Origin: an archaeon
GTDB taxonomy: Archaea; EX4484-52; B79-G9
Assembly (NCBI GenBank): GCA_043813875.1
Contig: JBDRKP010000064.1
Span: forward strand, 1 to 31,829
Direction: 5' to 3'
DNA length: 31,829 bases
In this document: piece by piece, positions 3,001-9,000 of the stretch
Numbering within the stretch: the stretch's first letter is position 1
Layout of the letters: every line of letters begins with the position of its first letter
Position numbers: made by a program

Positions 3001-6000
3001 ACGAACTTTGGCAGAAAGAATGAAAGATCCGGAAGACGAATTAAAATTAGTTATCGTGCGAGATATGTGGCTTACTGGTTTCGATGGTCCGTGCCTGCAC
3101 ACGATGTATATAGATAAGCCCATGAAAGGCCATACCCTTATGCAGGCAATTGCACGGGTGAACAGAGTCTATAAAGACAAGCCAGGCGGATTAGTTGTTG
3201 ATTATCTTGGAATTGCGTCCGATTTGAAAGAAGCGTTATCATTTTATTCAGATAGCGGTGGGAAAGGTGATCCTGCTGTTCTTCAGGAAAAAGCAGTTCA
3301 GATGATGCATGAAAAATTAGAAATTGTTTCCCAGATGTTTCATGGTTTTTCCTATGATCATTACTTTACAGCAGACACATCAACAAAGCTATCAATAATA
3401 CTCGCTGCACAAGAGCATATACTTGGCCTTGAAAATGGCAAGAAACGTTATATTGATGAAGTGACAGCATTGTCAAGCGCATTTTCTATCGCCATTCCGC
3501 ACGAGCAGGCAATGGATGTGAAGGATACAGTTTCGTTCTATCAGGCGGTAAAGGCCCGGCTTGTAAAATTTGACAGCACTGGAACAGGCAAAACCAACGA
3601 CGAAATTGAAACCGCAATCAGGCAAGTTATCGATCAGGCACTTGTAACTGAAAAAGTGATAGACGTGTTTGATGCCGCAGGAATTAAAAAACCGGACATT
3701 TCCATATTATCAGAAGAATTTCTTTTAGAAGTCCAAAACATGGAACACAAAAATATCGCTCTGGAAGTTCTAAAAAAGTTGCTCAATGATGAAATTAAAG
3801 CCAGAGTAAAGAAGAATCTGGTTCAAAGTCGAACATTGATGGAAATGCTCGAAGATTCTATTCAGAAGTATCACAACAAGATCATTACAGCAGTAGAAGT
3901 AATAGATAAACTGATTGAACTTGGTAAAGAGATAAAGAGGATGGACAAAGAGCCGCATGAAATGGGTTTGTCCGATTTTGAATACGCTTTTTATACCGCT
4001 ATTGCGGATAATGATGGCGCCAGAGAACTGATGCAAAAAGAAACATTGCGGGAATTGGCTGTTGTTTTATTTGAAAAGGTGAAACAAAATGCATCGATCG
4101 ATTGGACAATAAAGGAAAGCGTCAGGGCAAAATTAAAAGTAATTGTAAAACGTACATTAAGACAATATGGTTATCCTCCTGATATGCAGGCACTTGCAAC
4201 AGAAACAGTGCTAAAGCAGGCGGAATTGATTGCAGATGAAATAACCCGTAGAGGATAGAGGATGAGGGCGTATAATATCTTCACTTTAAATAGAACAGCA
4301 CACAGAATCTAAGACAAAACTATCGCTATATGATGATTTTTGGAGACTAAAACATCACAGCACTTTGCTTTGTGCCGCGATGCGCTCTCGCGTCGCTTTA
4401 TGTAGTCGTTTTGTTAAATCCTTGCGGGAACTCCAGATCGCTGCGAAACATTTATTATGAATAAGGTCAAAAAACTCGAAAAAGAGATTGATGCTATTTC
4501 TCACTTACGCAAAATCCATCCAAAACCTATTTAATATTTTGTCCAGTTCTAAACATTAAGCTGATTTTATGGGTATATTCAAGGGAAGAATTCTGCGCGT
4601 CGACCTCACGAAAAAAAATATAAGCGAGGAATATGCCGCCCCCAAAGACATACTAAGATACATCGGCGGCCGTGGCCTTGCAGCAAAAATACTCATCGAC
4701 GAACTCGACCCGAAAACAGATCCTCTTTCTGAAAAGAACATGATAATTCTCATGGCAGGCCCCCTGACAGGCCTTGCCCCAGCCTCAGGAAGATGCTCAT
4801 TCACGTCAAAATCCCCGCTTACCGGCACCATATTCGACTCGAACGTCGGCGGCTCCCTGGGTTATGAATTAAGAAAGACAGGCTACGACGGCGTCATAAT
4901 CACAGGCAGATCAGACACGCCTCTCTACCTTGAGATAACAGACAACAAGGCCGAGCTCAAAGACGCCAAACATCTCTGGACAAAGACCACAACAGAAACC
5001 ACAGAGCTCCTGGCCAAAGACAAATTCAAGGTCGCATGCATCGGTCCGGCAGGAGAGAATCTCGTATTATACTCATCGATAATCATAGACAGAAGCCGCG
5101 CAGCCGGCCGTGGGGGTCTTGGCGCAGTGCTCGGCTCAAAGAAGCTCAAGGCAATCGCCCTCAAAGGCACGCAAAAGATAGAGCCCGCAAACGAGTTCGC
5201 ATTCAGCGAACAGAAAAAACGCTTCCTTGAGATAATAAGAGGCCATCCGGTGACAGGAGACTCGCTCGGTCGTTTCGGCACCCTCGTTCTCATGAACCCC
5301 GTAAACAAGCACGGGATACTCCCCATAAACAACTTCCAGAAAGGCTTCTATGACAACGTGGAAAACATATCCGGCGAGACCATGCAGAAATACCTCACAA
5401 AAAAGACAGGATGCGCCCTCTGCCCCATAATGTGCGGAAGAGACGCTAACGTCGAAGGCGTAAAGACCCACGGTCCTGAATACGAAAGCACCTGGGCGCT
5501 CACAGTTCAGTGCGGTCACTCCGACGCAAAGACACTCGCCATCGCAAACAACCTCTGCAATGAATTAGGCCTTGACACCATAACCACAGGCAGCACAATC
5601 GGCTTTGCCATGGAATGCTCAGATAAAGGCCTCATCAAAGAAAAAATAACCTTCGGCGACACGAAAATAATCCCGGAACTCATAGAAAAGATCGCATACA
5701 AAAAAGACATCGGCGCACTCCTTTCAGAAGGCACCAAACGCATGGGAAAAAAACTGGGCGCAACCGACTTCGCGATAAACGTCAAAGGCCTCGAAATACC
5801 GGCATACGACCCACGCGGCGTAAAAGGCCAGGCATTGTCATACATGACATCAAACAGGGGCGGCTGCCACTTAAGAGCATACATGATCCCGCAGGAAGTG
5901 CTCTCCTCACCAAGATACTTAGACAACCTTGAGCTTGAGGACAAGGCAAGAAAGGTCCGCGACATCGAGAACATATTCGCAGTCATGGACTCGCTTGTCA

Positions 6001-9000
6001 TGTGCAAATTCACAACGATCGCAGTATTCGAGACATTCGACTACGAGATAGACATCTACGCAAGGATGCTCACGACCGCGACCGGCATGTACTTCGACGA
6101 AAAGGAGCTAAAGAAAGCAGGCGAGCGCATCTGGAACCTGGAGCGCCTCTTCAACACGAGAGCCGGCTTCACAAAAGAAGATGACCGGCTGCCGAAACGA
6201 TTTGAAGAGCCGATGCCGGAAGGCCCCGCAGAAGGCGAGACCGCAAAGATGGACAGTCTTCTCAGTGAATACTACACTCTCCGCGGCTGGGACGCATCAG
6301 GCATCCCGGAAGAGAAAAAACTGACAGCACTCAGCATAGATTTTGAAGAATCATGGCCGAAAAAGATAGTCTCTCTCAATCACGAATCACTGGAAGATGC
6401 CATATCAGACGCCAAAAAGAACCTCAAAAGCGGCGACTGGATAGAAGTGGCGTCCCCGCTCGTAAAAAGCCAGGGCGTCAACGCGATAATAGCGCTCAGG
6501 GCACTCTACCCTTACAAGACCATAATCGCAGACTACAAGACAATGGACACAGGATACCTAGAAGTCGAGATAGCGGCCCAGGCAGGCGCAGACATAGTCA
6601 CCATCTCAAGCCATGCAGGCAACCATACGATAATCGATGCCATCGGCGCAGCAAAGAAATACGGCGCAAAGATAATGATAGACCTCTTCGACGACATCAC
6701 GCGCGCAAAAGAAGTCGAGAAGCTCGGCGTGGACTACATCCGTGTATTCAAAAACGACATAATCGAAAAGCTTTCAAAAGAGATGAAGATACCGGTCGCA
6801 TCATTCATAGCATCAAAGCATGCAAAGCTGGCAGTCGAATCCTTCATCGACAAGGAACCTAAGGCGACAAAAAGAACAAAGACACCCGAGTTAGAGGGCA
6901 TCTGGCCGAAGCTCCAGGTAGCGCTTGACTTAAGGAACCTGAAAGAGGCCCTGAAGCTTGCCCGCGGCGCAAAAGAAGGCGGCGCACACTGGCTCGAAGT
7001 AGGGACGCCGCTGGTGAAAAGCGCAGGCATGGACGCGGTAAGAGAGATAAGAAAAGAGCACCCTGATTGCACCATCGTGGCTGACTTGAAGACATTAAGG
7101 AACGGCGGAAAAGAGGTCGCAATAGCGGCGCGTGCAGGCGCAGACATAATCGGCATCTGCGGCGCATCAGAGAACAGCATAATAAAAGACGCGATAAGGG
7201 CGGCAAAAGATTATAACGTGAAGATAATGGCTGACCTGATAGCAATAAAAGATCCTGTAGCCCGCGCAAAAGAGCTTGAAGACATGGGCGCAGACTACAT
7301 AGAATTCCATATTTCAGTCGACGAGCAGATGCGAAGCGGCAACGCGAAGATTCCGTTCCCTCTGGTCGAAAGCGTAGCAAAAGCCATAACGATACCGATG
7401 GGCGTCGCAGGCGGCATGAGAGCAGACACAGCGCCGCTCGCGATAAAGTCCGGCGCAAAGATTGCGGTAGTCGGCGGCTCTATAACGCGCGCAGCAGACC
7501 CGAAAAAAGCTTCGATAGTTATCCTGAAGGCCATCGGCAGATGATTTCTTATCATTGAAAATGATCGAGAACCTTTACGATCATGCATTACTATGGTCAT
7601 CATATGAAGCGAAAAATAAATTCCCTCTTCTCTGAAAGGAGACTTATACTGGATTCCAGCATGGTCTTTTCTGCAAGTTTTATCGGCGCAATCTTCATGT
7701 TCGCATCAAGCGTCGCACTGTCGCGCATCTTCAGCCCGGAGATTTTCGGCAACTACAAGACGCTGGTCAATCTTTTTCTCTTCATTCCCGCGCTTCTTGA
7801 TTTCGGCGCATCCCCCACACTCACCAGATATATCGCCGGATTCATGGCAAAAAAAGAGGAAGGAAAGATCAACCGCATGATCCGGTTTTTCCTGAAGATC
7901 AAAGGGATATCGGTCCTTTCTGTATCTCTCATGATATATCTGTCTCGCGATGCCTTTGCAGGCACATTTTTGAAGGACTCTTCTCTCTCATACCTGATAG
8001 TGCCCGGCCTCCTGCTCTCAGTTTCCTTTTTATTTGACCTCACCAAGCCGGTGATATCGGGCCTGCAGGATTTCAGGCTTCTATCATTCTCGAATTTCCT
8101 CACTACAGCATGCATAGGGATATTCAGCATAGTGCTCGGCTATTATTACGGCGTCTATTACGCCCTGTTGGGCTGGTCGCTTGCTTATTTTGCAGGGAAC
8201 CTGCCCAATATTTATCATATATCGAAAAGACGGCTCTTCAGCAAAAACTCACTATCATTGGATATCGGCCCTATCTTCAGAAGCTATGCTCTTCCGATGC
8301 AGATGATGATGATATTGAACACATCAAGTCTGGCCGTGATTCCGGTCCTGAGCCTCTTCTTTGCCCAGAAGCTGATAGGATACTACGGCTTTGCATGGAC
8401 ATTTTACAGCGGGATAATGCTTGTCCCCATAACCTTTTCTCAGGTGCTTTTCCCTAAAGTAAGCGAGCTTAAGGCGAATAATAAAGCCACAAGAAGCTCC
8501 ATAGTCAGTATACTGGCTGTATACACGCTTATCGTACTGACAGGTGTTACGGCAATACATCTGTTCTCCCCCGAGATAATATCGCTTGTATCCGCAGCAT
8601 ATCTTCCGGGCCTCCATATATTCAGGTGGCTGAACATCGCCGGCCTGTTGCTTGGCTATCTGTTCATATACGCGAACTATCTGAGCGCAAAAGGCAGTAT
8701 AAGAAGCGCATCGATTGTCTTTTTTGTTATGAATATGGCGCTGTTTGCTGTGAGTTTTGCATTGCTTTTCAGTTGGGCATAAACTTCCATATCCATATCA
8801 TTCTATTTGAATATACTTTATCCAAAAATACCATGGAATCATATTTTGATACAGACTCAATCGGCATCAAGAAATGAGGTGCATTAAGTATATCCAGTCC
8901 CCTTGTAAGCGAATGTTTCGATATTATAAAATAGTCTGTATTTTTTTCTCTAAATTCATCGTAAATCTCGCTTTCATCCGGGGTATAATATAACGCATTG

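Follow-up and report, generated by a model that had tools for sequence, protein, structure and literature searches.

A 991-residue protein encoded in the window (the whole 31,829-nucleotide stretch of archaeal DNA analysed here) joins a tungsten aldehyde:ferredoxin oxidoreductase (AOR) to two copies of HPS, the 3-hexulose-6-phosphate synthase. It is probably (we estimate around 60%) a bifunctional enzyme of pentose synthesis by the reverse RuMP pathway, in which HPS would release formaldehyde, the AOR would oxidise it and the middle domain would lend residue D660 in trans. Losses in the two HPS copies complement each other: the C-terminal domain has no third Asp in its DxKxxD motif, and the middle domain keeps that residue with its own site decayed. 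The middle copy seems, in other words, to lend the working copy its lost catalytic residue. New here are this complementary loss, the predicted pseudo-dimer, the clade of fused AORs with its insertion, and the gene content (PHI, RpiB, PurT and PurP). No paper describing an AOR-HPS fusion was found in the literature searched, in agreement with the first-pass annotation, which had called the fusion undescribed in the papers it covered.

Architecture of the fused protein

The ATG-started reading frame is the sole long frame at 4569..7544 of the forward strand, and encodes, in order, a full AOR (residues 4–591), a degenerate HPS copy (596–760) and an HPS domain (780–991). Its features are as follows.

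4569..7544, + strand: whole gene, AOR with degenerate HPS copy and HPS, 991 aa and stop, in a single frame
4584..5171, + strand: AOR N-terminal domain, residues 6–201 (Pfam AFOR_N, 1.7e-76, profile 1–199 of 199)
5217..6338, + strand: AOR domains 2 and 3, residues 217–590 (Pfam AFOR_C, 5e-136, full profile coverage)
6027..6044, + strand: six-residue insertion, residues 487–492, F-x-T-[LF]-x-[YCF], signature of the fused AOR clade
6354..6848, + strand: middle domain, degenerate HPS copy, residues 596–760 (internal duplication, AF2)
6531..6548, + strand: intact DxKxxD of the middle domain, D655, K657 and D660 (alignment, n = 10)
6849..6905, + strand: poorly conserved linker, residues 761–779 (mean pairwise identity 22.8%; pLDDT 71–75)
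6906..7541, + strand: C-terminal catalytic HPS domain, residues 780–991 (TIGR03128, 281.6 bits)
7083..7100, + strand: incomplete motif D839-x-K841-x-x-R844, third Asp replaced (alignment)

Beside the two AOR domains, Pfam recognised OMPdecase as two stretches, the best of which covered residues 780–981 (7.6e-48). The whole protein matched the PDB entries 9g7j (4.7e-154), 1aor (1.4e-151) and the FOR 1b25 (6e-105) on the AOR side, and 9lj9_B (5.5e-56) and 3ajx (4.2e-37) on the HPS side; its AF2 model had a mean pLDDT of 93.9 and a pTM of 0.87. The single 991-residue frame with an AOR and two HPS copies, as first annotated, was thereby reproduced at the level of frame, Pfam and PDB matches. The internal duplication of the HPS stretch also stood, with its earlier figure of 45% over 152 residues recomputed as 40% identity over 182 columns (E 4e-34). 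Mis-assembly was ruled out as the origin of the fusion, because several independent assemblies carry the same architecture.

The AOR part has the hallmarks of its family: full AFOR_N and AFOR_C domains, the fold (Foldseek TM 0.94, rmsd 1.2 to 9g7j and 1aor), four cluster cysteines, and the Glu and His. C282, C285, C289 and C479 align with C288, C291, C295 and C494 of 1aor, its [4Fe-4S] ligands, and E306 and H434 with E313 and H448, its catalytic Glu and His; all six residues are invariant in 82/82 fused proteins. Pyrococcus furiosus AOR (1aor), Clostridium autoethanogenum AOR (9g7j) and P. furiosus FOR (1b25) share the same three-domain fold over their full length, together with the cluster and catalytic residues, at 36–43% identity in structural alignment. 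These enzymes are free-standing, whereas the present AOR is fused and carries an insertion, beginning 8 residues past the fourth cluster Cys, that was present in 82/82 fused compared with 0/55 free-standing AORs, and opposite which the 1aor alignment has a gap. In a tree against 55 free AORs, the fused AORs formed one clade (0.937). Formaldehyde is a putative substrate only, because the AOR part scores higher against broad-range AORs (519 bits) than against FOR (355 bits), a caveat already attached to the first annotation. Of genes that bear, indirectly, on the tungsto-bispterin cofactor and ferredoxin-linked aldehyde oxidation of the family, MoaC and two MoeA genes were found in 6/6 searched genomes of the genus.

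Complementary loss between the two HPS copies

The C-terminal domain passed the curated model for 3-hexulose-6-phosphate synthase (TIGR03128, 281.6 bits against a cut-off of 200), matched 9lj9_B at 9.3e-58 and 3ajx at 2.2e-38, and had a Foldseek TM of 0.95 to 3ajx. It possesses the metal ligands, Lys and His of the HPS active site, and D787, E810, D839, K841, D889, H914, A947 and G948-G949 were conserved in 82/82 sequences of the C-domain alignment. D889, V917 and A947 align with the residues changed in the KGPDC mutant E112D/R139V/T169A (1xbx, mutations as given in the title of the PDB entry), and the domain is of HPS type at all three of these KGPDC positions (112, 139 and 169). Its DxKxxD motif, however, is incomplete, with R844 in place of the third Asp. 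Position 844 was Asp in 0/10 three-domain proteins (Arg in three, Ser in four, and Cys, Ala and Lys in one each) and in 72/72 aligned two-domain proteins; 11 shorter two-domain proteins outside that alignment also have the full motif in the sequence listing. The first-pass annotation, which called the C-terminal HPS ‘complete’, is to be corrected on this point. The HPS-PHI fusion of Thermococcales belongs to the same reverse-RuMP setting, in archaea that lack the pentose phosphate pathway. Among solved structures it is this fusion's, 9lj9, that matches the present HPS domain best, but it keeps the full DxKxxD, and the present protein has no SIS/PHI domain (NF041755 275.3 bits against a required 500, from the HPS half only).

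The middle copy matches HPS residues about 5–136 only, and its predicted fold has six beta/alpha units and two strands, without helices 7–8 and the phosphate-binding loops. The Asp that closes strand 1 was absent in 10/10 middle domains, the equivalent of His136 was kept in 1/10 and that of Glu33 in 7/10. Conserved in 10/10, on the other side, were D655, K657, D660, T661, G662 and D705, as well as T687 and G693, the C-domain equivalents of which (871 and 877) were changed in 10/10. Because the motif of the middle domain is complete, the third Asp missing from the C-terminal domain may be supplied in trans.

One could regard the middle domain as a decaying remnant or mere spacer that contributes nothing to catalysis, given its decayed active site, its missing last helices and phosphate loops, and its faster evolution (mean pairwise identity 52.6%, against 70.0% in the C-domain). 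This seems very improbable, since the eight residues above are held in 10/10 although middle domains share only 42–74% identity pairwise, what the C-domain has lost complements them exactly, and the adjoining linker, drifted to 22.8% identity, shows how an unconstrained stretch looks beside the middle domain. The earlier label of ‘truncated duplicate’, if taken to mean a relic, is contradicted by the retention of D660, T687 and G693 where the C-domain has lost them, and by a predicted pairing of the two copies.

HPS, KGPDC and OMPDC, of the OMPDC suprafamily, are homodimers of (beta/alpha)8 barrels that bear a DxKxxD motif; their active sites lie at the twofold interface, as is predicted here, and the partner subunit provides the third Asp, which is Asp67 in KGPDC. 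For OMPDC, PMC12874384 writes the last Asp of the motif (DXKXXD) as D96', the prime denoting the second subunit. Complex prediction for the middle and C-terminal copies scored 0.92, against 0.00 for the best of three controls, a result that may echo the solved HPS, KGPDC and OMPDC homodimers and so shows likeness, not binding; the score mark applied is reached by 116/157 solved complexes and 2/215 mismatched pairs. Complex runs had at least 91% of contacts in common, with a partner pLDDT of at least 89. The predicted interface involves residues 656–657 and 659–662 of the middle domain and 787, 841 and 914 of the C-domain, and the contact pairs 817:656 and 840:633 of the predicted complex mirror each other under the 184-residue offset between copies. 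The model predicts a pseudo-twofold pairing, which we read as a pseudo-dimer within the chain that has a single active site, and in which the ‘partner subunit’ is a degenerate copy fused into the same chain and one of two sites is left. No description of such a division of labour between fused HPS copies was found in the literature searched.

Distribution of the fusion and gene content

Matches in the collection at E≤1e-10 bore AFOR and OMPdecase Pfam domains in 93/97 cases, extending an earlier count of 73/75, and among these 93 were ten three-domain proteins (988–1014 aa, query included). The tandem-HPS stretch was complete in 10/61 genomes searched, including that of the window, and in one more was cut by a contig end; the earlier count of fused frames had been 10/41 related genomes. 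Source labels of matches and loci comprised Asgard lineages, Nezhaarchaeota, Methanomethylicota, Hadarchaeota and Thermoplasmata. In the HPS tree, the middle domains formed one clade (98) and the C-domains another (96), both inside the nearest two-domain group; their topologies mirrored each other, which points to one duplication.

PHI is encoded in the genome as a separate gene on another contig (192 bits, cut-off 160), and RpiB, unsearched in the first-pass annotation, is present at 189 bits. The formate-dependent purine enzymes are represented by PurT (NF006766, 431.5 bits, cut-off 339) and two PurP-type genes. The genome is 91.5% complete, so that genes not found are not thereby absent, and in it we found no Transketolase_N, transaldolase, RpiA, 6PGD, Fae, FTHFS, PFL, FNT or Molybdopterin-family (Fdh-type) enzyme; the earlier finding of a PHI candidate without transketolase, transaldolase, RpiA or Fae was accordingly reproduced. 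Among 12 other fusion-bearing genomes, Fae was found in 0/12, PHI in 8/12 over the cut-off (10/12 at E≤1e-10) and PurP-type genes in 10/12.

Some observations count against the proposed role. Transketolase_N and a Molybdopterin-family enzyme were each found in 4/12 of these other genomes, and the neighbours of the gene, a type I restriction gene and glycosyltransferases, are unrelated. The second HPS of the genome, already noted in the first annotation and seen again here, is joined to an RraA-like domain; it scores 561.6 bits where the cut-off is 593, has a canonical, intact DxKxxD and could serve pentose synthesis alone. Methanogens are known to have such HPS-RraA (MenG-like) fusions, in which the partner is of unknown role rather than an AOR, and PMC5241800 reports low HPS activity for the fusion.

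Pentose synthesis and competing readings

In the scheme that we favour, the stand-alone PHI would convert fructose-6-P to hexulose-6-P, the C-terminal HPS domain would cleave this to ribulose-5-P and formaldehyde, and the N-terminal tungsten AOR would oxidise formaldehyde to formate, with two electrons passing to ferredoxin. Oxidation would both clear a toxic product and drive the unfavourable cleavage forward. RpiB would then turn ribulose-5-P into ribose-5-P, and the formate could supply PurT and PurP. The middle domain, rather than acting as a second enzyme, would pair with the C-domain, D660 completing the single remaining active site.

That formaldehyde from the reverse RuMP pathway is oxidised on the same protein, as first proposed, is still the best reading and is partly supported, by the logic of the fusion, by the missing Fae in the 12 other genomes and by the precedent of Fae-HPS. 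In the latter, from methanogens, HPS is likewise fused to a formaldehyde consumer, in the same partner-HPS order, and the fusion was proposed to catch the formaldehyde set free as hexulose-6-P is cleaved to make ribulose-5-P; Fae, in the words of its authors, “might immediately capture formaldehyde” (PMC5241800). The partner here is instead a tungsten AOR, which would turn formaldehyde into formate with ferredoxin rather than bind it to H4MPT. The Fae domain (PF08714) is absent from the present protein and was not found in the 91.5% complete genome, so that AOR-HPS perhaps works like Fae-HPS without being a member, and would be its H4MPT-free analogue.

The same two reactions would also be consecutive in the opposite direction, and both are reversible in principle: the AOR would reduce formate with low-potential ferredoxin, and HPS would fix the formaldehyde onto ribulose-5-P to give hexose phosphate. 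AORs can indeed reduce acids, as is known from work on acetogens. A route from formate through formaldehyde to RuMP has been proposed for a crenarchaeon (PMC7143981). To regenerate ribulose-5-P, however, the organism would require both transketolase and transaldolase, or else an oxidative branch, none of which was found in the genome, nor were suppliers of formate (formate transporter, Fdh-type enzyme, PFL). Formate reduction is, besides, strongly uphill, and we judge assimilation in this direction quite unlikely.

HPS and AOR might also take up external formaldehyde independently, as a detoxification hub in which fusion means co-expression only; metagenomic papers propose HPS/PHI (PMC8065059) and AOR (PMC11291895) as formaldehyde sinks. 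We hold this to be unlikely, since a fusion of two enzymes competing for one substrate would be unusual, the fusion arose once and was kept in many archaeal lineages beside a stand-alone PHI, and no other pentose route was found in the genome. A link to formaldehyde would be wrong altogether if the AOR acted on other aldehydes, or the HPS-like part on another sugar phosphate, and sequence does not reveal substrate range in an AOR nearest to broad-range enzymes. Such a reading is distinctly improbable, given an HPS domain that passes its curated model and is HPS-type at the three KGPDC-distinguishing positions, and given that the clade of fused AORs stands apart and has an insertion of its own adjoining the cluster-binding motif, which argues for a specialised job.

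A broader version of the favoured pentose-synthesis scheme is possible, though we regard it as doubtful: AOR-HPS, PHI and RpiB would together form a widespread equivalent, linked to ferredoxin, of the oxidative pentose phosphate pathway. The C1 of hexose would then leave as formate, not CO2, with electrons going to ferredoxin, not NADP, and formaldehyde would pass straight from the HPS site to the AOR site. The enzyme would also be this organism's only source of formate for PurT and PurP, and a single protein would thus coordinate the supply of ribose with that of the C1 units of purines. Such a route would be frequent among Asgard, Thermoproteota, Hadarchaeota, Thermoplasmata and archaea with small genomes.

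In many archaea, pentoses come from the RuMP pathway operating in reverse, with release of formaldehyde, the fate of which in methanogens is accounted for by the Fae-HPS fusion. To our knowledge, its fate in archaea without Fae-HPS has stayed open, and the conserved fusion of HPS with a tungsten AOR would provide a concrete, testable answer for them, while giving a physiological task to one clade among the archaeal AORs, many of which are unassigned. The three-domain form would moreover be a natural example of the conversion of an obligate homodimeric barrel enzyme into a single-chain pseudo-dimer, one copy of which is predicted to retain the active site and the other just the residues lent across the interface.

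Parts of the fusion protein and their recurrence

The fusion gene and its Pfam domains (residues refer to the 991-aa protein)
4569..7544, + strand: fusion gene, one 991-aa frame with an ATG start
Residues 6-201: AFOR_N
Residues 217-590: AFOR_C
Residues 780-981: OMPdecase, the best of two stretches

The first-pass annotation had described this gene as an AOR and two HPS-like copies in one frame, an architecture borne out by the single 991-aa ORF, its Pfam domains, the curated HPS model TIGR03128 (281.6 bits, cut-off 200), matches to solved structures and an internal duplication. 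The structures matched were the AORs 9g7j (4.7e-154), 9mqx and 1aor (1.4e-151), the FOR 1b25 (6e-105), and the HPSs 9lj9_B (5.5e-56) and 3ajx (4.2e-37). Residues 591-779 aligned with 780-991 across 182 columns, 40% of them identical (E 4e-34); searched alone, residues 591-779 matched only the first ~135 residues of solved HPS. No NCBIfam model was passed by the 991-aa protein as a whole, and the names given to its relatives in source records vary between AOR, HPS and OMP decarboxylase.

By every feature that can be tested on sequence and fold, the protein belongs to the AOR family. Its AOR part aligned end to end with 1aor, such that C282, C285, C289 and C479 fell on the four cluster cysteines and E306 and H434 on E313 and H448, positions whose roles in 1aor we take to be those familiar from the literature; all six residues were unchanged in 82/82 fused proteins. 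In an AF2 model of the whole protein (mean pLDDT 93.9, pTM 0.87), the AOR part superposed on 9g7j and 1aor with a TM of 0.94. A midpoint-rooted FastTree was built from the AOR domains of 82 fused proteins together with 55 free-standing ones, the latter taken from the best 80 genome loci with the omission of four that carried stops in the translated stretch (L031, L042, L048 and L055). The fused domains formed a single clade (support 0.937), inside which those of three-domain proteins were a sub-clade (0.92). The signature of the fused clade is a six-residue insertion (487-492), eight residues past the fourth cysteine, that was present in 82/82 fused and 0/55 free AORs and within which F487 is invariant; a scan for positions discriminating fused from free AORs returned nothing besides this insertion and E493.

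The three-domain architecture was found again in independent assemblies. Six of seven other genomes of the same genus carried it, as did 2/4 genomes of a sister genus (with one further gene broken at a contig end), 0/4 genomes of a third genus in the family, and one genome from another family of the order, giving 10/61 genomes searched when the window's own is counted. That sole genome from outside the family, G034, also holds more HPS-like pieces on contig C28 (12431-17311); the frames that contain them are 114 and 761 aa long. A 968-aa protein with SIS and OMPdecase domains (P0011) matched the tandem-HPS query over 91% of its length, with 34% identity, and may be a separate, independent tandem of HPS modules lacking an AOR.

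Two HPS copies in one chain

By the curated model and its active-site residues, the C-domain is an HPS. D787, E810, D839, K841, D889 and H914, together with the glycine loops, were retained in 82/82 proteins, and HPS-type residues occupied all three positions altered in the KGPDC mutant E112D/R139V/T169A (1xbx). A complete DxKxxD in cis, one of the features that define an HPS, was absent from the C-domain: the third aspartate was replaced by R, S, C, A or K at position 844 in 10/10 three-domain proteins. Position 844 was D in 72/72 aligned two-domain proteins, and the full motif was also seen in 11 shorter two-domain proteins excluded from the alignment. The middle domain, which has no final helices or phosphate loops, had lost the strand-1 aspartate in 10/10 proteins and retained the equivalents of His136 in 1/10 and of Glu33 in 7/10. 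Conserved in 10/10 middle domains were D655, K657, D660, T661 and G662, and likewise T687 and G693, whose C-domain equivalents (871 and 877) were T and G in 62/62 proteins of the main two-domain group and altered in 10/10 three-domain proteins.

The origin of the tandem was addressed in a quick IQ-TREE analysis, with SH-aLRT support only, in which 82 C-domains and 10 middle domains were placed together with the other HPS of the genome. Middle domains formed one clade (98) and three-domain C-domains another (96), both nested within the group of nearest two-domain proteins (86) and identical in internal branching. Because the branching of the two clades is mirrored, and because both HPS copies open with the same W-P-K linker motif, the data point to a single event in which an ancestor with two domains duplicated its HPS module in tandem. 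Mean pairwise identity was 52.6% for the middle domain, 70.0% for the C-domain and 22.8% for the linker; the middle domain is thus evolving faster than the C-domain but is far better conserved than the linker. That the middle domain is a functionless relic, a rival reading for this domain only, we consider very unlikely.

The two copies are most simply read as a predicted pseudo-dimer within one chain. It would have a single active site, and D660 would be lent to the C-domain by the middle domain, the DxKxxD motif apparently being completed in trans. In KGPDC, Asp67 is supplied by the second subunit. OMPDC is similar, the third aspartate of DXKXXD being written D96', that is, from the second subunit, in a passage of one paper (PMC12874384). 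When residues 778-991 and 592-777 were predicted as two chains the score was 0.92 (the best of three controls scored 0.00), a value attained by 116/157 solved complexes and 2/215 mismatched pairs; because homodimers of the family have already been solved, this pass shows likeness to them and is no proof of binding. Runs had at least 91% of contacts in common, with a partner pLDDT of at least 89. The predicted interface is pseudo-twofold, helix 816-821 packing against its equivalent 632-637 and the contact pairs 817:656 and 840:633 being mirror images at an offset of 184 residues, and it includes 659-662 of the middle domain and 787, 841 and 914 of the C-domain. In the AF2 model, the 40% of the chain outside the AOR is probably also firmly placed, since a whole-chain pTM of 0.87 would otherwise hardly be reachable.

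Gene neighbourhoods

Features around the fusion gene in the window
13-4258, + strand: RhuM-family gene (2.3e-106), then an overlapping 1112-aa type I restriction R subunit (HSDR_N, SWI2_SNF2, T1RH-like_C)
7583-14117: surface-polysaccharide cluster with a flippase-like protein, a 494-aa membrane protein without family, two GT4, one GT2 and a DUF1616 protein
20368-23157, + strand: ArsR-type regulator, 164-aa protein without family, DsbD-like membrane protein and ArsP_1 permease
23200-25052, - strand: adenylosuccinate lyase and AIR carboxylase (PurE), purine genes
25416-31710, + strand: radical SAM/SPASM protein (559 aa), then WYL-domain and CcbP-like calcium-binding proteins and several frames with no Pfam match, including one of 571 aa

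The neighbours in the window, with RhuM-family and type I restriction genes upstream and glycosyltransferases downstream, are unrelated and gave no functional clue. No gene for a type I restriction M or S subunit was seen in the window. G+C falls to 0.30 at 9001-10000, against ~0.43-0.51 around it, and part of the polysaccharide cluster may therefore be acquired. The ArsR-to-ArsP_1 row looks like a small metal/metalloid resistance operon, and the purine genes are consistent with de novo purine synthesis in the host.

Across 12 related loci the neighbourhoods were little more informative, with the exception of a Hadarchaeia locus (L043, 7-4431), where a two-domain AOR-HPS stands in a row between a RuBisCO large-chain fragment and a 399-aa double-SIS protein. 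The C-terminal half of the double-SIS protein is PHI-like (122.4 bits, under the cut-off of 160), and the row hints at a link to a RuBisCO-based hexulose-phosphate pathway. Beside one three-domain relative (L005, 7253-8260), pyrF lies immediately downstream (TIGR01740, 182 bits), a nucleotide-synthesis gene of the same barrel suprafamily as HPS. At two Methanomethylicota-type loci (L010, 5655-5981; L012, 5600-5887) a divergent gene upstream of the two-domain fusion encodes a small ThiS/MoaD-family protein, which may be part of pterin cofactor synthesis. Locus L052, considered as a split AOR and HPS pair, was rejected, its downstream gene being a class II aldolase.

Pentose, formaldehyde and formate

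The organism's own genome (1.64 Mb in 90 contigs, 91.5% complete) encodes a stand-alone PHI (192 bits, cut-off 160), RpiB (189 bits), a formate-dependent GAR transformylase (NF006766, 431.5 bits, cut-off 339) and two PurP-type genes, and it has another HPS, in fusion with an RraA-like domain. At this completeness of 91.5%, neither Transketolase_N, RpiA, Fae and transaldolase nor FTHFS, Molybdopterin-family (Fdh-type) enzymes, a formate/nitrite transporter, 6PGD and PFL were found. Because genes of alternative routes were not found, reverse RuMP is, judging from the assembly, the sole pentose route, and to the same extent formaldehyde oxidation is the sole recognised source of the formate required for purine synthesis. 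Twelve other fusion-bearing genomes from several lineages, of unstated completeness, were compared: Fae was found in 0/12, PHI above cut-off in 8/12 (10/12 at E<=1e-10), PurP-type genes in 10/12, and Transketolase_N and Molybdopterin-family enzymes in 4/12 each.

Pterin-cofactor genes are also present in the organism's own genome (MoaC and two MoeA), and in G000, MoaC and two MoeA genes are clustered on contig C4 (13427-16161). MoaC and MoeA occurred in 6/6 genomes of the genus searched and in 0/3 genomes, 92-96% complete, that represent other families within the order; the fusion is likewise missing from these three. The idea that the cofactor pathway exists solely for AOR-HPS was rejected, as a GAPOR-like gene is present too (541.5 bits, under its cut-off of 1300).

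We favour a bifunctional enzyme of reverse RuMP, and put the probability of this reading as a whole at roughly 0.6. PHI would convert fructose-6-phosphate to hexulose-6-phosphate, which the C-domain, with the middle domain contributing D660, would cleave to ribulose-5-phosphate and formaldehyde. RpiB would then yield ribose-5-phosphate. Formaldehyde, the substrate that we infer for the AOR part, may be handed over between the two sites and would be oxidised to formate with reduction of ferredoxin, and the formate could enter PurT and PurP. The equilibrium of HPS cleavage favours condensation, as established for RuMP enzymes; oxidation by the AOR part would also pull the cleavage forward.

Other readings attach to the same activities. 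An unlinked double sink, in which both would dispose of formaldehyde from outside, seems unlikely to us. The AOR part is nearer to broad-range AORs (519 bits) than to FOR (355 bits), and a substrate pair other than the proposed one is an improbable alternative, as is flux in the reverse, formate-assimilating direction, to which we give similarly little credence. The proposed bifunctional reverse-RuMP enzyme can also be set beside systems already described. No description of an AOR-HPS fusion was found in the literature searched, the scope of which ended short of supplements and subscription journals; in passages of two metagenomic papers, HPS/PHI and AOR are named together, but as distinct enzymes of formaldehyde metabolism (PMC8065059, PMC11291895). 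The 991-aa protein is not a member of the HPS-PHI family. In a passage on Fae-HPS (PMC5241800), the authors say of Fae that it 'might immediately capture formaldehyde'. The logic is the same in AOR-HPS, and the 991-aa protein, while not a member of the Fae-HPS family, would work alike.
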